A DNA stretch of 63,927 nt, counting the filler, from Collodictyon triciliatum (lineage: Eukaryota), in NCBI GenBank assembly GCA_043381765.1. It is 5 parts of 5 records of this genome, joined end to end, with 100 filler letters (N's around TTAATTAATTAA, not from the genome) between each part and the next. Parts side by side here need not be neighbours in the genome. Positions count along the whole stretch, not along the records: positions 17,619 to 34,746 come from JBHJMP010001451.1; 4 more parts are not named here. The stretch is one strand, 5' to 3'. Made by a program: the position numbers and the translations under genes. Below, one piece after another: positions 3,048 to 59,601 of the stretch (the first letter of the stretch is position 1; every line of letters starts with the position of its first letter). Below the pieces are notes generated by a model. It did not search any database and was not told the DNA's origin. It saw only the letters and a list, made by a program, of their open reading frames with translations.

Positions 3048-3608
3048 NNNNNNNNNNNNNNNNNNNNNNNNNNNNNNNNNNNNNNNNNNNNNNNNNNNNN
3101 NNNNNNNNNNNNNNNNNNNNNNNNNNNNNNNNNNNNNNNNNNNNNNNNNNNNNNNNNNNNNNNNNNNNNNNNNNNNNNNNNNNNNNNNNNNNNNNNNNNN
3201 NNNNNNNNNNNNNNNNNNNNNNNNNNNNNNNNNNNNNNNNNNNNNNNNNNNNNNNNNNNNNNNNNNNNNNNNNNNNNNNNNNNNNNNNNNNNNNNNNNNN
3301 NNNNNNNNNNNNNNNNNNNNNNNNNNNNNNNNNNNNNNNNNNNNNNNNNNNNNNNNNNNNNNNNNNNNNNNNNNNNNNNNNNNNNNNNNNNNNNNNNNNN
3401 NNNNNNNNNNNNNNNNNNNNNNNNNNNNNNNNNNNNNNNNNNNNNNNNNNNNNNNNNNNNNNNNNNNNNNNNNNNNNNNNNNNNNNNNNNNNNNNNNNNN
3501 NNNNNNNNNNNNNNNNNNNNNNNNNNNNNNNNNNNNNNNNNNNNNNNNNNNNNNNNNNNNNNNNNNNNNNNNNNNNNNNNNNNNNNNNNNNNNNNNNNNN
3601 NNNNNNNN
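3048..3608. other. Assembly gap (N run)
   Basis: Run of N. Confidence 1.
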
Positions 3609-4161: not shown

Positions 4162-4754
4162 NNNNNNNNNNNNNNNNNNNNNNNNNNNNNNNNNNNNNNN
4201 NNNNNNNNNNNNNNNNNNNNNNNNNNNNNNNNNNNNNNNNNNNNNNNNNNNNNNNNNNNNNNNNNNNNNNNNNNNNNNNNNNNNNNNNNNNNNNNNNNNN
4301 NNNNNNNNNNNNNNNNNNNNNNNNNNNNNNNNNNNNNNNNNNNNNNNNNNNNNNNNNNNNNNNNNNNNNNNNNNNNNNNNNNNNNNNNNNNNNNNNNNNN
4401 NNNNNNNNNNNNNNNNNNNNNNNNNNNNNNNNNNNNNNNNNNNNNNNNNNNNNNNNNNNNNNNNNNNNNNNNNNNNNNNNNNNNNNNNNNNNNNNNNNNN
4501 NNNNNNNNNNNNNNNNNNNNNNNNNNNNNNNNNNNNNNNNNNNNNNNNNNNNNNNNNNNNNNNNNNNNNNNNNNNNNNNNNNNNNNNNNNNNNNNNNNNN
4601 NNNNNNNNNNNNNNNNNNNNNNNNNNNNNNNNNNNNNNNNNNNNNNNNNNNNNNNNNNNNNNNNNNNNNNNNNNNNNNNNNNNNNNNNNNNNNNNNNNNN
4701 NNNNNNNNNNNNNNNNNNNNNNNNNNNNNNNNNNNNNNNNNNNNNNNNNNNNNN
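4162..4754. other. Assembly gap (N run)
   Basis: Run of N. Confidence 1.
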
Positions 4755-17283: not shown

Positions 17284-17360
<77 letters not shown>

Positions 17361-17518
17361 GTATTTACTCTATGTATCTTCTCATTATTATTTTTTTATA
17401 GCGAGAAGTCCAAACGAGTTCGAATCGTAGATGATGACTCAGATGGGAGCACGCCATCAGAATCTGAAATGCGCGAGGTTGAAAACACAATATCTTCATA
17501 TATGGATTCGATTGATAC
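12889..17518 (+). CDS. Uncharacterised multi-pass membrane protein, multi-exon, truncated at contig end
   Basis: In-phase splice ...STASLPG|VKSIAKTVRASANQYWQEKFFIFAEYLQMFSVVYALTITRWGWPIW|WKVKVKWVVVFNLDFW...; several hydrophobic exons, then soluble exons (DFDLLLMDKRMKRILLKLYTVRVF). Exon 1 contains 12-bp repeats encoding NQSQ/SRTQ. Confidence 0.65.
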
Positions 17519-17618
17519 NNNNNNNNNNNNNNNNNNNNNNNNNNNNNNNNNNNNNNNNNNNNTTAATTAATTAANNNNNNNNNNNNNNNNNNNNNNNNNN
17601 NNNNNNNNNNNNNNNNNN
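17519..17618. other. Artificial contig linker 44N-TTAATTAATTAA-44N
   Basis: Identical 100-bp spacer with stops in all six frames; occurs four times. Confidence 0.97.
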
Positions 17619-18099
17619 AAAAACAAAAACAAAAAACAAAAAACAAATTCAAAGACAAAGACAAAGACAAAGACAAAGACAAAAACAAAAAACAAAAAAC
17701 AAAAAACAAAGACAGTAGTCTACACTCTTTTTCTTTTTCCCATCGACAAAGTCAAATACAACAAAACAAACCAGAAAACTAAATGTTTCCACACGCAAAA
17801 CTTTCATATATCCACCGCCCCCACTAAAAAATAAAAGTAAAAAAAAAAATTTGGTATTATTATCTACATAGTAAAAAGATTATAATGCGACAAAAAAAAA
17901 AAAAAAAGGAAAATAAGAAGCGGAGATTCTGTCACTTTCGTATCACTGAAGTCCCACAAAGTGAAATACCGCTTCTGCTCCTTCTTCTTCATCTTTTTGC
18001 CGCCTCTCCCTTTCTCACCTTGTCTCCAGTCCAGCATCAAAGCCGAGCCCTTCTCTTGGGGAAAAGTCGCCGTCTGTGAGGAAAAGTCGGCAGTGAGGA

Positions 18100-21000
18100 A
18101 TGCGCGGATCTCAGATCAGCCGACTTGGCGAAGCATACACGCACGAAACACCGCACACAGGAGCGGATTTTCCTGCCGAGCAGGCCGAGTCACGCGCCCC
18201 GCAGGCCGGCCGAGCCTTTGAGACCAGCAGAGCCGACAGAGCCGATCGATTCGACCTGCAGGCGTTTTCTCCGTCGTCCGAGCATTTCTCACTGGGCAGT
18301 TTTGGAGACGGAGGCGATCGAACTCCGGCCGAGCGTTTTGGCCACGTGTCGAGTAGCAAAGCCGTGATTCCTGCTTTGTTGTCGTCTGGAAGCAGCGTCT
18401 CCAACATGAATCTCAACGCCATGTCGAATCCAAACATGCTTTCCAATGTTAACACAAATGTTAATGCAAATACAAATGCAAATGCAAATATGGAGGATGA
18501 TCTCTTTGATGGAGGCGCAAATACTTCGATCCAAGGCTCGTTGACGACAAAAGGCTTCGAGGGAAAAAGCGCAGGGCGCTTTGAACGTGGCGTGTTTGGA
18601 CTCTTTTACACCATGGTCAAGGATCGTCCGCAGCACCGCATATTCAGTCGGCTGCTTGTGCCGCTGAAGCTGCTCCAGTTTCTGGCCTTCAGCTTCAACA
18701 CAGACTTTCCCTGGAATCCCGCAATTACGCATTGGTTTCAGCTTTTTCTGCGCTGGTCTCAGTTCAACTTTTCAAAGAACGGATCATATGCCTCTCAGGT
18801 GGTCTACTTTGGCCTGGCCAGTGTATCTTTGTATGCTTCTTATGCTAACTTTGTCTACGTCATGTACATGTTTCAGGTTAGTTATGCTAATTAAGGACAT
18901 CTGTGCTTCATTCCTTGTTTTCAATCTCAAATATTCTGATATAGGCTTTCATGATTTATTGTTGTCATTTTTGTTCATTTTGCCTTCGTGAATATATGTC
19001 TATATCTCTCTCCAAGTTAAGTGCTTGATGTATGCAATACGTAGTCATCTGTCATCACGAATGTATGGTCGATACGTATGTTGCGCGTTGTGGCCGGTAC
19101 ATTATTTACTTTCCTGTTTATTCCGATCACCAGGATTTTGCTCCTGAACGTAAAATGTGACTATAGGTAAATAAATTAACCTTATCGATTTACATAAAAG
19201 GACAAATCACAAGGCTTTTTGAAGTTTTATGGTACTTGTTTAATCCTCCATTTTATGCGTTTTATGACGTGAATCAAATTCAAACTTAGTGGGGGAGTTT
19301 TTCAAGCACATCTTATCGACCACCCAGATATCGAATGTTTTGGTTGGCCGAATGGCTTTCTTTACGTGGTTTCGGTTGTGGCCCTCCTCTGTCTCATCCC
19401 TCTTGCACTCATGACATCTCTTGTGTATGTGTATAATATGCAATATACTCATTTCTTCCCTTGCCAGAAGAGAAAAATGTTAACACAGTCGTGTGAAAAA
19501 TATGATTATGCTTTGAGTATCTCAACTTCATTTTGCTTTATTTCAAAAAAGAAAATTATAAATGCCCAAACGAACGTAGGTACTACGACGGAGATATCAA
19601 ATCAAAAGATGTCCAGAGTAGGCACCATGGAAGACTCGACTTTCTACTCTTGATAATGAAGCTGGTTCTGGTCTTTTCCGAAGTCTTGTTTGCTGAAAAA
19701 ATGGTTTGTCACCCTAGTCTTGAAATAATTTCTCTTGCGATAAAAACTAAGAAATAAGAAAAAGAAAAAGAAAAAGAAACATAGAGACATAGAGACATAG
19801 AAATAGAAATAGACATAGAAAAAGAAAAGAAAGAGAAACATAGAAATAGAAATAGAAATAGTCTAAGTTCATATTTTATTTCGGGATCTAGGGAATTCGA
19901 ATTGCGTGTCTGGTTATTAGCGCCTCTATATACGTTTTGGCATGCTTGATATTTCAACCATACTACCACCATCGAACCAATCACACCGTCCGTTTGAATA
20001 TATGATAGCCAAATTTATTAAATATCTCATGAAACAGAGGCGTCGTGAGAAATCACCTCAATATTTTCCATCTAACATTTTCGTATCTCATGCAGACGGT
20101 TGGCATGTTTTCAGTTGTGCTTCTATCTGCTATATGCACAGCAATTTGTTATGGCATCGGTGATGACAACTCGATAGTTGCACCAATATTGTTCTTCGTC
20201 CTTGCCATCCCATCTTTTTACGCAGGATACATTTTATCAAGTAATCAATAATAATTTATTACGAATATATGCCTTGGTGATTTTTAGTTTGATCTAAAAA
20301 TATGACCTCGATCTTAATATATTTTTCCTTGGAACCCCCCGACAGGATTCCGATACAATTTTCTGATTGAGTCAGTGAAGCAAGCATTTCCTGAAAGCCA
20401 TCCTGGACCCTCAGCAGTGAGTCCAAATTCACACACTCAAGGACCACCTGGATTTTACTTCGAATCAGATGTCGAAATAGCCATTAGGTAGAACAAAACC
20501 CAACAACAAAAACAATTTTATGATGTTCATTATTTGGTAGAATTTAAATTTGTAATGCACTCAATACAGGCATTTGATTACATCAAACCAACCAAACATC
20601 ATGTACGCCCAGAAGCTTTACTTGATTGGTGTGAAGCTGTACCCCCAATCAACTTATGTTCTCCAATCATACATTCTGTTTATCGCTTATGTCAAGAAAA
20701 ACTATCCGTTGACGATCAAACCCATTCGCGCTCTAAGAAGATTGGATCTTATGATAGACACAAAGTTTCTGATATATGTTGTCGAAGTGGATTGGTTAGT
20801 CTCTTAATTTACTCTGTCTGTAGTTTCATTATGCAGCTATGTTTTTTTTTTCACCACTCATTTGTAACAGAGCCTGCAAACGTCATCAGCACTAAGACAT
20901 AGCTCCATTTATTAAAATGGTTAAAATCGCACTGTTTCTTCATAGGACGAAAAGTAACCACTCCCAAGAGCTAGGGGACGGGGGGACAATGGATGTCATG

Positions 21001-24000
21001 CATTATGTCGATTTTCAAAGCAATTACAATCGCGCAAAGACGTACCATGTGAAAACTCGAAAACTCATTCAGACTTTTTGGGAAAAGGTAAGGCCCATAG
21101 AAAGCACGAGATGCCAAAAAAAATGCATCATGCATCACGTATCATGTATAATGTATAATGTAAAGTATAAAATGTAAAAATTATATATTCTCTAGAATAT
21201 TTCTCATCATTTTGCTATTGGCCTGTTCCATCACTAAATGTTCTTAACGAATCGAAAGGTCATTGACTCTACGGATGAACACTTTGTCATAGAATTGCCG
21301 CAGTTGGCATCTGATATAGTGAGAAATGAAAAGAAATGTGAAGAATCATACATCAAGCTTCTCAACACATATCCCGAGTCACGAGTCCTCTTGCGGAGCT
21401 TTGGTCAGTTTGTGGAAACGGTCAAGAATGATAAAGAATGGGCACGCGAATATTACAGTCAAGCAGATGCCCTCGAAGACCCAAGCTTGGCAGCAAAGCA
21501 AAGGGACGAAACATCTTCATACCATTCTCATGTCTCTGTTCATAAACAACGCACTCAGTCTGCATGGATAAAAAAACGCGACCGTGCAAAACTTGAAGTA
21601 GTGCGCCTGTTGCAAGTGGGGACATATGTCATCGGGTTCACAGTATGTTTGGCTACAATCGCTATATTCACACTGGGGAGAATCTCACATGTGCATCTGT
21701 CTGACATTCTTACATCAGCAAGTGAGCTCAGTGAATCTTCCAAATATTCGCAGGTAAAATATCATAAATAATATTTTTCTTCTCTTCGAATCATCCTTTT
21801 TTTTTAATATATATTTACAATTATATCAATTTAATGACTATGATATTTTAGGTCCCATATTTATATCTCAGATCTCTGGACTTATCGGCATACAGTAACG
21901 AATCAGACTATTTCTCATCAAACCAAACTGTGATAGAGAAGGAAATGACATACTTTCTATCTCTACAGCAAACGCTTTACGATTCTGCACGCCAGGTAAA
22001 TCTCTCTCCAGAATGGACAAGAAATGAGTATACAGTCTACGAGCTACTCCCGTCCAGCTATTATGATTTTCATACATCTCTGGTCAATTTTTGGGATGGA
22101 GTCAACAGTTACATCCAAAGAACACGCTTTGACTCATATAGGAGGATAGAGCAGTTTCAAGACAAACCAATTTCAAATGATTACTGGTTTTTTTTTTATT
22201 CTTTTCATTTTCTCCTTTTATTTTATCTGATTAAATATATAACCTCTGTAAAGATTTAACTCTATAACCCTGCATAAAAATGCGCCAACAATATGTAACC
22301 AAACATTTTTAGATCACTCGCATTTGATTTTCATTCTTTCTTAACAGGTTTGTGTTGAATAATGGACCTGCAGCAATCAACGAAATGTTTACACAGATGA
22401 GAATGTCGTATAAAGCCCGCCATGAGAACCAATTGGATTATTGGCATAGTGTGTTCTCAGTTTTGCTTGGCGTTTCGATTGGCCTGAACATTGCTTTTCA
22501 GATTTTCTTTGTTCGAACACTGGAAAAACTGCAATTGTTTAGAGAAAAAACACTAAACATCTTCCTTGTTATCCCAAAGCCAGGCAAGGAAAACTGACCA
22601 ATTTAAAATAATATTTATATGAAAGAATATTGTCATCCTCAATTTATTTTTATTCCCTTTCACCAACTAAAATAACTAATTAAGTTTGACTTTTCACGTC
22701 ATTGAGAAATACAATAGGACTTTCTTTCAATCATGATTCCACGAATCCTATTCATTAAATGATAAATTTTACTCCATCAGTCATCTCAGATTTACTTCAG
22801 ACTCTCCGGAATGCAAGAGACGAGGACGATGAAGACGACGAACGCGACCACCACGAGTTAGAAACGATAAAGTATTTGCCCAACAGACTAACGAAAATAT
22901 AAAGACTTTATCCAATCTCCCATATAACCTATTTACCTGAACCAGAAGTAACGCTTGTTAATAAATGACATACAGCGAATCGCAGGAAAATGCTGGTCAA
23001 GAAAATCCTGGAGCTTCTGCTTCGATATACTCAGTACATGCTGGTTCCAACGGGGCACTGAATGCCAGACGCAACAGCCAAAGTCCTGCAGATGGCGCAC
23101 TCGATGGAGAAGATGACGCCGAAAACTCAGCAGCTCCAATATCGGTCGACTCGGACATCGAGAAGGATATTCTACAAACAAACAAATCGAACACATACAA
23201 ATCGAAAAAGCGGCAGCCGGTGCCAACGAACGAGCCACCAGCAGATTCGAGCAACGTGCCATCCATCGAGGAAAAAAGCACTGTCGTGAAGCGGGTATGA
23301 TGCAGATAGTAATAAGAAAAAAAATATGCAACAGTGATATCAATTTCCTAATAGCTTTCTTTTCTTTGCTTACTAATCCTAATGCGGCTCATAACCAACA
23401 CTGTAGAAAAAGGACCAAAAAATACACGCACGCCACCGTATCGGCCTGTTTATAGTCCAGCTGACGTTCCTGGCGATCATTCTGGCACCCTACTTTATGA
23501 TCCAAGAGCAAAGCTCCTTTGTAAAGGAAGTGTCAGTTGCTGGTAATAAACAAAATCTATTTACTCCTACCATTCTCTCAAAACATATACACTACCACTC
23601 GCGAAGATGCACAAAATATAAAATGACCAAGAAAATTTGCGACTGTTTATGAAAATAGGTGAAAGATGGGAATTGATGACAAGGGTGCGTTTTTTCTCTC
23701 GCGAATTTGTTCTTGGAAATTCTCCATTCTGGAGCCGCAAGGAGATTCAAGGGATTTTGAAGAAAGACACATCAAGGTATATATAAAGGATGCGTGCCTT
23801 TGTACAAAGAATGAAAGGATTTGGTGGTTTCATTATTTCCTTCTCAATATGCTGAACGTCTATCTATTAATTGCACAAAGACTTGGCCTTATTCACGACC
23901 AACTGAAGTACGGCGGCGGGGCATTGCCAGGCTCTGACCATCGCTACGAGCCGCAGCACAGTCTTTTATACGACCCTGTCGACTGCTTAATGTTTAACAG

Positions 24001-25441
24001 GTTGACTGCAACTTTTCTACTTTTTATTTCCTTTACTTTATGCTTTACCTTTCGCTTCGTTTTCTTATATTTTTTTTATTTCACCCCTCCGTCATCCAAA
24101 AGAAAGCAATTTGTTTAGCTTTGCTGCTATGGGGATTTCTTGACTCACACAGCTAAATCGAGCAGGAGCCTGTGCACGCCGGGCCGCATCCCTGGATTTC
24201 TCTCTGTCAGCCTGGATTCGCTTATGGAGAGATTTGTTTCCAAAGCTGTTCGGCTCTCTGCGTACCCGCTTAACACCACCGAACTGAGTCTGGGTCAAGA
24301 GGACTTTGCATTTGTGTGGGCTGCCGGCGAAAACGACCTGGATGATGCATTGCACAAATCCTTGATGCTTTACAACGAAGAAGGGCAAAAAAAGCTTGAT
24401 GATATGGTGGATACAATCAATGGTGTTTTTGCTGGTTCCATTTGTACCTTGCTGTTCATATACTGTGAGTTCCTCTGATTATCTTTCTTTTGTTCTTCTT
24501 GTTCTTGTTCTTTTTTCTTCGTATTTTTATGAGACGCTGTGAACTGCTGACCCAAACATTTCTGATCTGGTGATTCGGACCACCAAATAAATCATAGTTA
24601 CGTTGCTGCGCCCAATCACGGTTTATCTGCGAGAGGAAAGCGAGAACATCACCCGAATCTTATCGATTATCCCGCAAGAATGGGAATCGCGGCCTTTGAT
24701 TGAATGGTCCGAGAAGCTAAGCGTGGGCATCACCATCATGGACAATCAACACAAAGTCCTGTTGAATCTGATAAACGCATATTACCGCGCAGTTCTCGAC
24801 CTGAAGGGAGCCGAAGTCATCGGAAAAGTACGCCCCGATTCTCATTTAATCCATTTGTCTGTTTCATCGTCCGCAACATGCGAATCAATGAAAATGCTAC
24901 ACTCCTTTCATTCACTCCTGTCCAAACTCAATGCTTTTAAATTAAGTGTATACACATGCGTATCTATAAAGGTATTGGAGGCGCTTCTACAATACACCGT
25001 AAAGCACTTTGGTGAAGAAGAGGCACTCATGGCAGAAGGTCATTATCCAGCGGTTGACGCACACAAAGAGCTTCACAAAAAATTAATTGGACAAGTATAT
25101 CTCTTATGATTATGATTATATTTTTTTTAATATTAGGATTCTTGATTAAAATTCTACTGAAAATCGAATGATTCAGTGCACATGCATGAAATGCCGATTT
25201 AACTTACTTTTCTGTTACAACAAAAACAAAAATACAAATAACTGTATAAATAAATATAAATGCCATCATAACAATGTAAAAGGTCATGGAATTTGTTGCA
25301 AGACTCAAGAAAGGCGACCCCAGCGTGGACTTCCGCCTGATGACGTTCCTGAGAGCGTGGCTCACGAGTCACATCCTCGGTCACGACAAGAAATACGGCC
25401 GCCATCTTCTCCAAAACGGCTACGAAAACGAAGACGCCTGA
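18100..25441 (+). CDS. TmcB/TmcC-like polytopic membrane protein with TPR-like domain and C-terminal hemerythrin domain
   Basis: N-terminal multi-TM block (FERGVFGLFYTMVK...LQFLAFSF...IRMLRVVAGTLFTFLFIPITRILL...C); TmcB-type helical region (FQSNYNRAKTYHVKTRKLIQTFWEKV...YIKLLNTYPESRVLLRSFGQFVETVKNDKEWAREYYSQADALED); two further TM-loop-TM modules; EESENITRILSIIP; then a complete hemerythrin domain and TGA at 25439-25441. Confidence 0.85.
24696..25441 (+). other. Bacterial-type hemerythrin domain encoded by three exons (to 24827, 24972-25094, 25283-25441)
   Basis: LIEWSEKLSVGITIMDNQHKVL...VKHFGEEEALM...YPAVDAHKELHKKL...FLRAWLTSHILGHDKKY; all di-iron ligands present (H, HxxxE, HxxxH, HxxxxD). 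Confidence 0.95.
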
Positions 25442-26111
25442 TGCAACTCTATGTTCTTCCTTGCATCGGCGGACTTGCTGGGCAGCTGTGTTCTCTTCAT
25501 CCGCTGGCCAGAAGCCTGTTTTTGTGTGATGTTTGATGTGTGATGTGTAATGTGTGATGTGTGGGAGTAGCACATAAACATTAGACGAAGAAATCTTTCA
25601 ACAGAAAAAAAAAAGAGTACAAAACGAAGTCTCTAGAAATCATTCAAAAGAAATACATGTCCACTCAGAATTATGAATATAGACAATTGTCAGCCTTTCA
25701 TTTCTTTCAAGATACCTTTTTTTTTTATTACAGTTTTCGTCACGAATAAAAAGGTAATAATACTATGCGTCGCTTATGCAGTATGTGGTTATAGTTTTTT
25801 TTTTTTTTGTTATAAAAGATCGACAAAAATAAAATAAAATAAAATAGCCCAATTCTGAGAAAATCATGCTGCACTGAGCCACATAAACACACAATTCAGA
25901 TATCACAGTAGAATCCGCTCTTGATTCACTTTATTTTCAAATATTTTCTTAGTGTTCGATTAATCATCCTACATAAAAGCAAAACCCGATGCATTTCCAG
26001 TATCTTCCTCGGCCGTAGAAACACTTGTTTCACTTTCTCTTTTGTCTCATAATCTGTATCTTCTGGCAAAAGACACACGCACACACACACTTGTCCATAT
26101 CCCGATGCCTG

Positions 26112-26304
26112 TCAGCCATCATCAGGGTGAAGGCCTTGGCGAGGAGCGCTCTCGACTGATTCGATATCTGATTCGGACTCGGATTCTTCCAGTGAGATGA
26201 GCTCTTTGACTCCGTTGCTGTTTCCATCATCCACACCATCCTCCTCATCCTCCTCCTCCTCCTCATCCTCCTCCTCCTCCTCATCCACATCCTCCTCCTT
26301 CTCC

Positions 26305-26362
<58 letters not shown>

Positions 26363-26897
26363 CCTCCTCCTCCTCCTCCTCATCATCATCATCATCATCA
26401 TCCACACTACTGGATTCGCCCTCACAACTTTCCTTGTAAGCCCTGAACAAGCCCACAAGACGGTAGACGTTTGCTGGGGCATGCGCAATCTGCCCATGAG
26501 AGTACTCGGAGCGGCACTCGGGACACTGTGATGGCTTCTCTCCGGTCGCGTGCTTTGACTCCGGCCTTCCCAGACATCCTGCGCAGAACGTGTGTCTGCA
26601 CGGAAGAACTCTGGGTTCGTCCAGCAGCTCCAGGCAGAGTCCACACTCCAGGAAACGTGTGCAGGCGGAGATGAGCTGCTTTTTCCGCTGCGCCGAGGTT
26701 GCTGAGAGAGGAGCGAGGTTGTGAGGCGGCTGCTCGAGGAACCGTATCTAAAAGAGTGTTTGTGTGTGGGTGCAGAAAGAAAGGAAAGAAGGGAAAAAGA
26801 AGGGAAAAAGAAGAAACTTCCACAAGCCTTCAGTCTCGGGACGGGCTGCCGACAAGCGGAGACGCTTTCTTGGGTTCTTGCTTGGCCTGGCGCTCAT
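26112..26897 (-). CDS. C3HC4 RING-finger protein (putative E3 ligase) with NLS-like N-terminus and long Asp/Glu tract
   Basis: Frame not shown in the ORF track reads FLECGLCLELLDEPRVLPCRHTFCAGCLG...QCPECR, continuing into the poly-D/E ORF 26112-26456. The only available upstream ATG (26897) gives MSARPSKNPRKRLRL. Confidence 0.8.
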
Positions 26898-27999: not shown

Positions 28000-29994
28000 T
28001 GATCGGGTTTATGGTATCTTAAAAGAGGAAAGTTAAAATTTTGTTGGTGAAAAAGAATACTGTTTGCATATATATGCATCTCATCTTTCTATCTATCTCT
28101 TTGCATACCGAGAAGCTTTTTGGTGTGATGAGCATGCATATCGCACAGTTTGACATGACAGCTTCAAATCTAAAAAACATGTCTCGCGCAAGTGTCACAG
28201 ACTTTTTTCGAATCCCGTACACATGTAAGGTTTTTTTTTTTTTGAGTTTGGTTGTTTCATTGTTACATATACTAAATAATTACTCTTTATTTGTAATTTT
28301 TGGTTTCTAAAAATAAACATTTTAAGATGGAAATGTAATAGTCATATTGATGCGTCGATGATGTGGTAATTGATTTGTAGATGAAGCAGAGCAATCACCC
28401 GGCATTTATGTAAGCAAACCAACGACGCTGGCGCCCTTGGTCGATATGATTCTTAATGTGAGTCCGAAATGAATCTTGTTTCACCGATATAAGCAAGATT
28501 TCCGAATCCATTTTATCGATGCATGATTTTGCAAATTGAGATGTTTGCTTTATCAATGGCCTGTGATTGAAATGAGCCCATGCGCCCGAAATTCCTTATG
28601 CGAAAGATTTATTTTTTTAAAAAAAAGGTACTAAAAACTACTTTGCTACAGGTGTTGAACGATAGTGGAAAGCTTCTTGAATCATATGGGTACAGAGACT
28701 TTTCGCAGTTTATCATCGAAAACTGTAAATCCAAAAGTAAGTTGACTCCTCTTTAAAATGACGAAGGAGCATATTTTTCAAGAATTATAAACTATATCAA
28801 AGCACAATTTCGTTCCAAAAGGAACCGCGCTCCGTCATCTCCCAGCGGCTGTTTTAATATATTTTGAGCTCTCTCATAGGCGCTGTGGAATTAACAGAGA
28901 GCCTTGTCCGTGCATTTCCCGCCTTTGATGACAGATTCGACTGGAAGGGAACACCAATTTACATATACAAGAAAGCACAACTCGTTGCAGCTGAGTTGTA
29001 CCGTCATCTCAGGGTACAATATTCCCTCTTTCATATTTCGTTTCGTTTCTTTATTTTTTTTTTTAAAGAAAAACAACAAGTACATAACTCTGCGTCCATG
29101 AATTATCATTATTTTTTAAATTTTTTGTTTTGTTTATTTGATGTTGCTTGTACTCAGGCAGAAAAGGATTGAAGAAACTGCCGACTTTTTTATATCTATT
29201 TACTGATTCATGTTGCCATCCTCACTGTCACCACATTCAAGCAAAAGCACACCGCATTCTACTTCACAGACATGGAAAAGCTGACTGTATACAGTGACAA
29301 TGTCGTCCCAGCAGTTCTACGGTTCCATAAGATTCTGGTGCTGGATGAAGCACTATCGAAGAAAATTGAGGACGGGTTCGGTTCTTTCGTCCGCTCACAA
29401 TCTCGTTGCTTTATCCTGCTATGTTTATTTGCATCGTCGCCATCGGACACAACACTCTGTTTCTATCCTTGTTTAACTATCAGCCAGATATTCGAGAAAT
29501 GCATGTCTCAACTCGCAATTCAATACGTGACAGAATCGAGCTCTCCGCAGGCGATGAGGATTTGCAGTTGCGAGCAAGCGCGATAGTTGCGGCAGAGAGA
29601 CTTGCCACCAAGCTACAGCAAAAGTTCCCTGATAAACGAATCACAGAACTCGAAGTCGACTATTTCTTGTGGGTTGTGGCAAAGGAGCCCGAGGTTCTAT
29701 TTTTATTTTCTTGCTAGATGAGCATGTGTAAATATGTTGACGCTTTTTTTTTTCGTTCATTTTATAAAGAAACAAAATACAAATATAAAACAAAAAAAAA
29801 CAAGAAAAAAAAAAGTCCCAACAGAAGGTTTACTTATTAATTGTGTTTATCCAATTTGTCAAACTATGCATATGCAACACCCCCATACTGAATTACCATA
29901 TCATCATTTCGCACATTTCAAATACGTGAATTAAACCGGCTGACAGCTCCGAAAGTTTCAACGACACGCAACCAAGGATACATACTTTTACTGA
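27440..29994 (+). CDS. QNG1: Queuosine salvage family protein (QNG1/C9orf64/DUF2419-like)
   Basis: VRSSCRFVAEHSELVRVDEEAI; INLLNFGSGF; LVRAFPAFDD...IYKKAQLVAAEL; LTVYSDNVVPAVLRFHKIL; QLRASAIVA; EVDYFLW...RHATKDTYFY*. Motif order and FY C-terminus are typical of DUF2419. Confidence 0.85.
27735..27998. repeat. Compound (CATTGT)n/(CAT)n/(TAT)n microsatellite in QNG1 intron 1
   Basis: Direct inspection. Confidence 0.95.
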
Positions 29995-34746: not shown

Positions 34747-34846
34747 NNNNNNNNNNNNNNNNNNNNNNNNNNNNNNNNNNNNNNNNNNNNTTAATTAATT
34801 AANNNNNNNNNNNNNNNNNNNNNNNNNNNNNNNNNNNNNNNNNNNN
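34747..34846. other. Artificial contig linker
   Basis: 44N-TTAATTAATTAA-44N. Confidence 0.97.
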
Positions 34847-52299: not shown

Positions 52300-52399
52300 N
52301 NNNNNNNNNNNNNNNNNNNNNNNNNNNNNNNNNNNNNNNNNNNTTAATTAATTAANNNNNNNNNNNNNNNNNNNNNNNNNNNNNNNNNNNNNNNNNNNN
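52300..52399. other. Artificial contig linker
   Basis: 44N-TTAATTAATTAA-44N. Confidence 0.97.
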
Positions 52400-59501: not shown

Positions 59502-59601
59502 NNNNNNNNNNNNNNNNNNNNNNNNNNNNNNNNNNNNNNNNNNNNTTAATTAATTAANNNNNNNNNNNNNNNNNNNNNNNNNNNNNNNNNNNNNNNNNNN
59601 N
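59502..59601. other. Artificial contig linker
   Basis: 44N-TTAATTAATTAA-44N. Confidence 0.97.

Follow-up and report, generated by a model that had tools for sequence, protein, structure and literature searches.

The subject of this report is a gene of the protist Collodictyon triciliatum that lies in a window of 63,927 nucleotides (nt), filler included, from assembly GCA_043381765.1, the window being the whole stretch of DNA analysed. On the plus strand (coding sequence 18406-25441), this gene encodes a protein of the TmcB/TmcC family with about 12 transmembrane (TM) segments and a C-terminal hemerythrin (Hr) domain. On balance, we consider it probable that this is one gene whose cytosolic Hr tail acts as the O2, redox, or nitric oxide (NO) input of a receptor, and the protein may be a type of oxygen or redox receptor that has not previously been studied in eukaryotes. 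The order of its parts is an N-terminal TM block, a TPR_TmcB domain, two modules in which a loop separates a pair of TM helices (TM-loop-TM modules), a conserved juxtamembrane helix of about 27 residues, and Hr. A full-length ortholog from Diphylleia rotans (P0152) is used throughout for comparison. The starting point was a description made from the sequence alone, referred to here as the original prediction, which had proposed a TmcB-like receptor ending in an intact Hr domain.

The hemerythrin domain and its splicing to a membrane exon

By its profile and structure matches, the C-terminal tail is a canonical bacteriohemerythrin of the type found in DcrH, a methyl-accepting chemotaxis protein (MCP) of Desulfovibrio vulgaris (2avk, 2awc, 3waq), with the motif H-HxxxE-HxxxH-HxxxxD. 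NF033749, the NCBIfam bacteriohemerythrin profile of 129 positions, is matched by one exon each at 1-44, 46-85, and 87-128 (33.1, 44.6, and 35.1 bits, respectively), and all seven di-iron ligands are intact (H1302, H1339, E1343, H1358, H1362, H1398, and D1403), in agreement with the full domain and complete ligand set of the original prediction. These residues align with H23, H59, E63, H78, H82, H118, and D123 of DcrH-Hr, ligand numbers that agree with the alignments. In an alignment of 64 sequences, conservation of the ligand columns is 90% or higher, and the ligands are intact in all five eukaryotic members described below. The first two Hr exons alone pass the TIGR02481 cut-off (65.6 bits compared to 51.75 bits), and PF01814 scores 27.4 bits in the window open reading frame (ORF) 24591-25109 (cut-off 25.3 bits) and 54.3 bits in residues 1285-1397 of P0152. 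A single-frame NF033749 score of 75.2 bits is below the cut-off of 84 bits because the third exon lies outside that frame. The spliced window domain scores 155.8 bits over positions 2-132 of 135 with a hidden Markov model built from 50 single-domain matches.

The closest solved structure is DcrH-Hr, both for two window exons (E-value (E) 3.3e-10) and for P0152 (E 3.7e-20, residues 5-134 of 136), and 10 of 10 PDB matches of P0152 are hemerythrins. The four-helix bundle was tested on P0002, a relative that is 59% identical in Hr, whose AlphaFold2 model has a predicted local distance difference test score (pLDDT) of 90.2 and helices at 54-75, 80-107, 113-135, and 141-170; the juxtamembrane helix is modelled less confidently (pLDDT 60-77). 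The best Foldseek matches of this model are again DcrH-Hr, with a target-normalised TM-score of 0.93 and a root-mean-square deviation of 1.4-1.7 A. Hr would sense O2 or redox state, and possibly NO or iron.

The join between Hr and the membrane part was examined in contigs of public runs X1 and X2 (three runs are listed), which are 90-99% identical to the window and were compared over 17800-25900. None of the three runs is on record as RNA, and we took the contigs for RNA from their own features. Several of their loose ends are one identical, adapter-like oligo string, presumably the template-switch or PCR oligo of SMART-type cDNA, and the X1 contig that ends at 25593 continues into an A run absent from the DNA. 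Together, the spliced joints, the poly(A) tail, and the oligo-like ends make these contigs look like cDNA. RNA-type contigs begin at 18106, and poly(A) is reached at about 25593.

The joint 24464|24598 in an X1 contig falls inside the last TM helix (TM D) and ties the Hr exon to the upstream receptor exons. Overlapping contigs form a chain from 23144 through 25593, and both X1 and X2 contigs span exon 24598-24827 with zero differing letters. These contigs show the gene structure and splicing of the C-terminal half. The original prediction had the helix EESENITRILSIIP running in frame within one exon into the entire Hr domain. This helix does lie in exon 24598-24827, directly after TM D and in the same exon as the first Hr helix, but Hr spans three exons (24598-24827, 24972-25094, and 25283-25441) rather than one. 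The raw DNA reads as one open frame over 24591-25106 because the 144-nt intron 24828-24971 is in frame and stop-free; it is spliced out in the X1 and X2 contigs.

The full gene model was built from contig joints and from 7 introns deduced from reading phase and GT..AG sites. It comprises 21 exons and 4263 nt and encodes 1420 amino acids (aa) with a single terminal stop, consistent with the multi-exon gene that had been proposed. The X1 and X2 contigs support 13 of the 20 introns, 12 as skipped intervals (11 of them GT..AG) and the thirteenth, 25095-25282, by loose contig ends at 25096 and 25283 that read into each other. Stretches 19697-19967, 20510-20780, and 21594-22135 are without X1 or X2 contig cover. 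In character the locus is eukaryotic coding DNA, and its introns are short (82-197 nt).

The membrane part and its predicted topology

A hydropathy scan found about eight hydrophobic segments at residues 61-364, which make up the N-terminal TM block, and four clear TM helices after the TPR region that are common to the window protein, P0152, and a more distant relative, P0097. TM A (651-674) and TM B (846-866) enclose loop 1 (675-845), and TM C (1038-1058) and TM D (1238-1254) enclose loop 2 (1059-1237). Two window exons match TPR_TmcB (Pfam PF25474) above its gathering cut-off of 27 bits, at 31.9 bits (profile 4-47) and 48.4 bits (profile 59-120; ORF 21238-21771), and none of eight further plus-strand ORF pieces in 18.1-25.4 kb exceeded a Pfam cut-off. 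The N-terminal multi-TM block, TPR-like region, and two TM-loop-TM modules that had been predicted are all present at this place on the plus strand. The closest Atlas clusters are named 'TmcB/TmcC TPR repeats domain-containing protein', and TmcB clusters score 0.95-0.99; an Atlas search with residues 620-1275 returned unnamed clusters only.

A Pfam scan of full-length P0152 (E at most 0.01) matched TPR_TmcB and Hemerythrin only and detected neither a PAS nor an enzymatic domain, which agrees with the proposals that no PAS domain follows the TPR region and that the protein has no enzymatic output domain. The accompanying statement that TmcB-like proteins usually carry PAS domains, and some of them cyclase domains, was not confirmed, as four Atlas TmcB clusters list PF25474 alone as the common family. 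The remaining 1270 residues of P0152 outside Hr have no solved-structure match in the PDB.

Because four TM helices lie between TPR_TmcB and Hr, the two domains are on the same side of the membrane. Lysine plus arginine counts in the 15-residue flanks of these helices are 6, 4, 7, and 2 (total 19) on the TPR/Hr side compared to 1, 2, 1, and 2 (total 6) on the loop side. By the positive-inside rule, this charge bias puts TPR, linker, and Hr on the predicted cytosolic side and, opposite them, the two loops, each about 170 residues long, in favour of the polytopic protein with a cytosolic Hr that had been proposed.

The two TM-loop-TM modules resemble each other weakly. BLASTP gave a collinear self-match of P0152 (620-895 vs 1010-1285, E 0.002, 19% over 171 residues), and the self-match of the window protein (867-900 vs 1255-1281) reached only E 1.1. 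The helix that closes each module contains a motif similar to L-x-[IV]-[IF]-x-[IV]-I-P, namely TLNIFLVIP and TRILSIIP. The resemblance hints that the modules may be an internal duplication.

Orthologs and relatives in other protists

A search with exon 21259-21753 returned one relative among 740 candidates, the 1321-aa protein P0001, which is 74% identical and whose cluster consists of three Trinity isoforms of D. rotans (EukProt). One of these, P0152 (1412 aa, transcript-derived, 'ORF type complete'), is collinear with the window protein from end to end without large gaps and identical at 908 of 1400 aligned positions (65%), including in the deduced exon 19892-19987. In tblastn, P0152 gave collinear matches for residues 19-1410 at the gene and none elsewhere in the window. 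P0152 is a single assembled transcript with both TPR_TmcB (84 bits; residues 479-598; profile 4-121 of 125) and Hr, and the complete fusion is thus encoded on one transcript in a related species.

The other two isoforms (P0001 and P0153) end exactly at window intron sites, after 24464 and 24827, and these intron positions are shared. By this comparison, P0001 and P0153 are intron-retention products that would encode receptors without a complete Hr. Retention of window intron 24465-24597 would lead to a stop after 4 codons, and retention of 24828-24971 would add 48 residues in frame.

Identity between the window protein and its Diphylleia ortholog is highest in the helix that follows the first module (post-TM helix 1, 91%), the juxtamembrane helix (85%), and Hr (79%); intermediate in the pre-TPR and TPR_TmcB region (73%) and the N-terminal TM block (71%); and lowest in loop 2 (62%), loop 1 (44%), and the acidic linker (40%). 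This pattern suggests conserved cytosolic elements on the signalling side and variable outward loops, as in many receptors.

The same architecture occurs in P0097 (NCBI KAL0216594.1, a 'hypothetical protein'), in which Pfam finds both TPR_TmcB and Hemerythrin. Its source, Eukaryota sp. TZLM1-RC, is unclassified at NCBI, and we take it to be a skoliomonad metamonad. BLASTP of P0097 against P0152 gave three collinear matches, to the N-terminal TM block (P0152 52-272 vs P0097 4-225, E 3e-15), the TPR region (E 1e-4), and TM D with the motif and Hr (E 7e-32). The N-terminal TM block is therefore homologous among members and, at 28% identity, the eight-TM block is the part best kept in the distant P0097 outside Hr. 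Two shorter sequences hold the C-terminal end: P0047, a 251-aa ORF of Pygsuia biforma (EukProt), matches P0152 1215-1406 with E 5e-36, and P0002, a metagenome fragment, contains the TM/motif/Hr module. All five proteins (window, P0152, P0002, P0097, and P0047) share the juxtamembrane motif [IM]-L-x-[IM]-[IV]-P, followed after about 10 residues by a conserved W. Word-index protein searches with the Hr exon and with P0152 1225-1412 found no further relatives, a weak negative in that the cluster representative of the Diphylleia protein is a truncated isoform.

By sequence comparison, these proteins show that the TmcB-Hr fusion is conserved in other protists. The full architecture, for which the original prediction had called for a search, turned up in P0152 and P0097; the fusion is not unique to this genome, and unannotated proteins that carry it are already in public sets.

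Ancestry of the hemerythrin domain

An exhaustive HMMER search of 1.84 billion representatives with ORF 24600-25094 gave 3229 matches at E of at most 0.001, the best 150 of which were listed. We scanned with Pfam all 35 matches of at least 499 aa among the best 150 of 3229 and, of the shorter ones, P0002. Of these 35 long matches, 24 carry MCP signalling domains and are bacterial chemoreceptors; one has TPR_TmcB, two have Hpt and histidine kinase ATPase domains, and two have GAF with or without PAS. A TM-like segment lies within 75 residues upstream of Hr in 7 of 195 domains in 152 proteins, and five of these seven belong to the window protein, P0152, P0002, P0097, and P0047.

In a 190-row Hr tree, P0152 and P0002 form a clade with the window protein (Shimodaira-Hasegawa-like approximate likelihood ratio test (SH-aLRT) 99), and all five eukaryotic rows fall in a seven-leaf group with two bacterial rows at a weak SH-aLRT of 65. 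An approximately unbiased (AU) test used 50 rows, namely the 5 eukaryotic rows and the nearest 45 of the remaining 185. The tree uniting the five rows had a log-likelihood 8.97 above that of a free quick search (p-AU 0.626), where P0047 had joined the five-member group after the first tree had been seen. One origin of the five eukaryotic Hr domains is not rejected by these trees. Most likely, judging from the matches, Hr derives from a bacterial signalling protein and was attached immediately after the post-TM helix that the family already had.

Comparison with known hemerythrin and TmcB proteins

DcrH resembles the window protein in its external (periplasmic) loop between TM helices, its cytosolic C-terminal Hr, and its seven ligands. 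It differs in having HAMP and MCP domains between the membrane and Hr and in feeding the Che pathway, whereas the window protein has about 12 TM segments, TPR_TmcB, and two TM-loop-TM modules, with Hr about 27 residues after the last TM. Neither MCP (PF00015) nor HAMP was found in the Pfam scan of P0152 or in the window ORF pieces, which places the protein outside the MCP-Hr class. With Dictyostelium TmcB/TmcC and the PF25474 family, as compared via profile and clusters, it shares a full TPR_TmcB, nearest Atlas clusters that score 0.99, and a eukaryotic multi-TM build; unlike in this family at large, where Hr is not among the common families of the four Atlas TmcB clusters, it has a C-terminal Hr, which is a minority addition.

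Other proteins share single properties with it. Bhr-DGC of Vibrio cholerae and Bhr-HD-GYP of Ferrovum use Hr as the O2 or redox input of a signalling protein (described in part of PMC9388753), but these are soluble proteins with Hr N-terminal to a c-di-GMP enzyme, whereas the window protein is membrane-embedded, eukaryotic, and without an enzyme domain. P1B-5-type ATPases are polytopic with a cytosolic C-terminal di-iron domain (in the same part of PMC9388753), but the window protein has canonical HxxxH instead of the HxE variant, and no P-type ATPase family was matched by Pfam in P0152, which separates it from the P1B-5 class. In FBXL5 and BRUTUS/HRZ, eukaryotes likewise employ a hemerythrin-type di-iron domain for regulation. 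These are soluble parts of E3 ligases, and their Hr-like domains are divergent, in contrast to the canonical bacteriohemerythrin on a membrane protein found here, and Pfam found no F-box and no RING or CHY zinc finger in P0152 that would place it in the FBXL5/BRUTUS class.

Proposed function and alternative explanations

In the reading that we favour, the cytosolic di-iron centre would bind O2, be oxidised, or bind NO. The resulting change in the N-terminal segment of Hr would travel through the conserved juxtamembrane helix of about 27 residues to TM D and the TM bundle, and the signal in the bundle would determine which state the receptor adopts, with its two variable loops exposed on the outside. 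Because the protein has no enzymatic domain, the TPR_TmcB scaffold or the N-terminal TM block would carry the output. The proposal of a eukaryotic polytopic protein with a cytosolic non-heme di-iron module is supported by the single gene, the seven ligands, and the charge-based topology; the terms receptor and sensor are deduced from these. The primary paper on tmcB of Dictyostelium is reportedly that of Muramoto et al. from 2005. This founding member of the family reportedly acts as a regulator of the cAMP pathway during sexual development, and its induction follows 24 h of hypoxia (PMC12750705). Bacterial Hr sensors bind O2 tightly and autoxidise fast; the values given for DcrH are 0.3 uM (dissociation constant) and 22 min (half-time) (PMC9388753).

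Several points weigh against this reading. Receptor, sensor, iron and O2 binding, and signalling are deduced from sequence. The topology comes from a crude hydropathy scan and charge counts rather than a trained predictor, and the absence of a solved-structure match for the N-terminal TM block means that the 'receptor' could equally be a 'transporter' or 'channel'. In bacterial chemoreceptors Hr follows the signalling domain, whereas here it adjoins the membrane, so that their coupling is not transferable; in DcrH itself, the coupling of Hr to output is called unresolved (PMC9388753). One transcript across the locus, as originally predicted, was recovered in part: a contig joins the TM D exon to the Hr exon and a single Diphylleia transcript holds the fusion, but the contigs, whose RNA nature is a guess, are fragmentary and form no bridge across the whole gene. 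The full-length link rests on a Trinity assembly from another species, and P0097 matches TPR_TmcB with 27.8 bits, just over the 27-bit cut-off. Some contigs keep introns; contig 20928-21213 crosses intron 21088-21258, which implies that unspliced RNA or DNA is also present.

FBXL5 is a hemerythrin-type stability sensor, and we judge it unlikely that Hr in the window protein is likewise an iron- or O2-dependent switch of stability or abundance, as in FBXL5 and BRUTUS, in which low iron or O2 would lead to metal loss, unfolding, and degradation or re-routing, so that the protein would report iron status. The characterised eukaryotic hemerythrin-type sensors are of this kind (according to part of PMC12022348), the absence of an output domain fits control of the protein's own fate, and a gene for a RING-finger protein is found on the opposite strand 0.7 kb downstream, an adjacency that means little in eukaryotes. 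Against a stability switch, the domain is a canonical bacteriohemerythrin nearest to DcrH-Hr (ortholog E 3.7e-20) and chemoreceptor tails, not of the divergent FBXL5/BTS type, and no F-box or RING is in the same protein.

It is similarly improbable that the TM block is a transporter or channel in which Hr serves as a redox- or O2-dependent gate or as a local buffer of O2 or reactive oxygen species, with no ligand-receptor function. The P1B-5 ATPases set a precedent as polytopic proteins with a C-terminal cytosolic hemerythrin-like domain (from part of PMC9388753), the eight-TM block is what P0097 conserves best outside Hr, and an enzymatic output domain is lacking; however, neither Pfam nor the PDB gave a transporter family match for P0152, the P1B-5 ligand motif differs (H-HxxxE-HxE-HxxxxD, in the same part of PMC9388753), the sole functional report on the family concerns cAMP signalling (in the part of PMC12750705 cited above), and the two large variable loops between TM pairs resemble receptor ectodomains.

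We give almost no credence to the fusion being an artefact, whether through two neighbouring genes being taken for a single one, bacterial contamination fused to a eukaryotic contig, or a non-functional relic of Hr: the window does consist of contigs joined by linkers, the RNA contigs are fragmentary, and two of three Diphylleia isoforms end before or inside Hr, but the gene lies wholly inside one contig piece, two spliceosomal introns split Hr, contigs splice Hr to the upstream TM exon, the truncated isoforms break at window introns after 24464 and 24827 as intron-retention products while the third holds the whole fusion, and the ligands and Hr domain are highly conserved. Bacterial contamination and a two-gene artefact were rejected on the basis of the introns within Hr, the TM-Hr splice joint, and the P0152 fusion; the joint at 24464|24598 and P0152 contradict the possibility, raised with the original prediction, that the Hr exons are a separate gene.

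Gene model and neighbouring features

Exons of the gene and the evidence for each are listed in Table 1. Intron 22584-22780, skipped in an X2 contig, is GC-AG; its ends were printed as CA..AT, and a 3-nt shift within the allowed ambiguity gives GCAAGG..CATCAG. X1 and X2 contigs have a 7-nt insertion, ATGCATC, at 21122 in intron 21088-21258, beside an existing copy, which resembles a small tandem-repeat polymorphism. One X1 contig, which has a loose end of 255 letters ahead of 24482 and an inserted TTG at 24495, was considered as a sign of an alternative first exon; we judged it a probable match to the low-complexity, T/G-rich stretch in intron 24465-24597 and rejected this reading.

Table 1. 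Exons and 3' untranslated region (UTR) of the TmcB-Hr gene, with their content and support.
Feature	Coordinates	Strand	Content and evidence
Exon 1	18406..18876	+	First in-frame ATG, low-complexity N-terminus, first TM segments; X1 contig 18106-18874 joined to 19043; aligns to P0152
Exon 2	19045..19166	+	TM block; both flanking joints in contigs, GT..AG
Exon 3	19290..19424	+	TM block; contig joints 19166|19290 and 19424|19580
Exon 4	19580..19703	+	TM block; acceptor in contig, donor inferred
Exon 5	19892..19987	+	One TM helix; inferred; phase-compatible GT..AG introns on both sides; gapless alignment to P0152 and P0001
Exon 6	20096..20240	+	TM block; donor 20240|20346 in contig, acceptor inferred
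Exon 7	20346..20487	+	End of TM block, start of predicted cytosolic region; acceptor in contig, donor inferred
Exon 8	20570..20794	+	Helical repeats before TPR_TmcB; splice sites inferred; 73% identity to P0152 (tblastn)
Exon 9	20946..21087	+	TPR_TmcB profile 4-47; Pfam PF25474 E 1.4e-7, 31.9 bits; 98% identity to P0152
Exon 10	21259..21753	+	TPR_TmcB profile 59-120 (about 21295-21480), TM A (21607-21678); Pfam E 1.1e-12, 48.4 bits; 74% identity to P0001
Exon 11	21852..22186	+	Loop 1, predicted non-cytosolic side; donor 22186|22348 in contig, acceptor inferred
Exon 12	22348..22583	+	End of loop 1, TM B (22451-22513), conserved post-TM helix; X2 contig 22347-22580, joints on both sides; followed by GC-AG intron
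Exon 13	22781..22871	+	Post-TM helix, acidic stretch; acceptor in contig, donor inferred
Exon 14	22976..23294	+	Low-complexity, predicted cytosolic linker; donor 23294|23407 in X1 and X2, acceptor inferred
Exon 15	23407..23542	+	Basic stretch, TM C (23440-23502); both joints in X1 and X2
Exon 16	23659..23776	+	Loop 2; both joints in X1 and X2
Exon 17	23881..24000	+	Loop 2; joints in contigs
Exon 18	24166..24464	+	Loop 2, first part of TM D (from 24425); X1 joints 24000|24166 and 24464|24598
Exon 19	24598..24827	+	End of TM D (to 24608), juxtamembrane helix with motif ITRILSIIP (24609-24689), first Hr helix with H1302 (24750-24752); NCBIfam profile 1-44
Exon 20	24972..25094	+	Hr helices 2-3, ligands H1339, E1343, H1358, H1362; joint 24827|24972 in X1 and X2; NCBIfam profile 46-85, E 1.5e-11; aligns with DcrH-Hr 47-86
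Exon 21	25283..25441	+	Hr helix 4, ligands H1398 and D1403, stop codon; NCBIfam profile 87-128; aligns with DcrH-Hr 90-134
3' UTR to poly(A) site	25442..25593	+	X1 contig 25283-25593, then non-genomic A run

The window is a pseudomolecule in which contigs are joined by four identical linkers (17519-17618, 34747-34846, 52300-52399, and 59502-59601), each composed of 44 N, TTAATTAATTAA, and 44 N, a six-frame stop spacer. Because these linkers are artificial, features that flank one need not adjoin in the genome; the TmcB-Hr gene lies entirely within the contig piece 17619-34746. Two plain N gaps occur at 3048-3608 (561 nt) and 4162-4754 (593 nt). A T run of about 75 nt at about 17290-17365 is near the end of the preceding contig piece (1-17518), before linker 17519-17618, and is not on the piece that holds the gene. 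On the minus strand, a RING-finger ORF at 26112-26744 (zf-RING_UBOX E 2e-8, zf-C3HC4 E 8.4e-7) is a separate, convergent neighbour 0.7 kb downstream of the Hr gene; it is followed by a very long Asp/Glu run, the DNA of which reads as poly-His or poly-Ser in other frames. A queuosine-salvage (PF10343) match lies in the plus-strand ORF piece 29173-29583 (E 3.1e-6, 27.4 bits).

Novelty and implications

We found no paper that mentions both hemerythrin and TmcB, and literature searches on hemerythrin with protists, metamonads, domain architectures, Pygsuia, or diphylleids (Diphylleia, Collodictyon, and CRuMs) found no such protein; the main text of the paper on the sister strain TZLM3-RCL does not mention TZLM1 or hemerythrin. 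This outcome agrees with the original view that the architecture was not known to be characterised. Hr-coupled membrane signalling has been described in bacteria, and the TmcB scaffold in eukaryotes; it is their combination and the juxtamembrane wiring that is undescribed. The direct O2 sensors of eukaryotes that we know of are hydroxylases, haem proteins, and the FBXL5/BRUTUS iron sensors, and to our knowledge no membrane receptor with a canonical hemerythrin has been studied.

In lineages that branch near the base of the eukaryotic tree, the gene offers a specific candidate that is both expressed and conserved. It also provides an input that can be tested for the TmcB family, which is poorly understood, and the C-terminal domain of about 165 residues should express easily. 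A bacterial sensory module that sat at the tail of a chemoreceptor now has spliceosomal introns and lies beside the membrane, which bears on the reuse of signalling domains after transfer. As a tentative and possible extension, the protein would be the eukaryotic counterpart of a bacterial aerotaxis receptor: a DcrH-type Hr would have been captured once from a chemoreceptor and welded to the last TM helix of a TmcB-family receptor, with whose non-heme di-iron centre deeply branching heterotrophic flagellates (diphylleids, breviates, and TZLM1-RC) would read intracellular O2 or redox state and steer or switch their behaviour through a cAMP-type pathway. If this is true, the protein would be the first eukaryotic counterpart of such receptors and would provide a route of O2 sensing independent of prolyl hydroxylases and haem, and the fusion would be of ancient origin or else have been transferred among microaerophilic protists.

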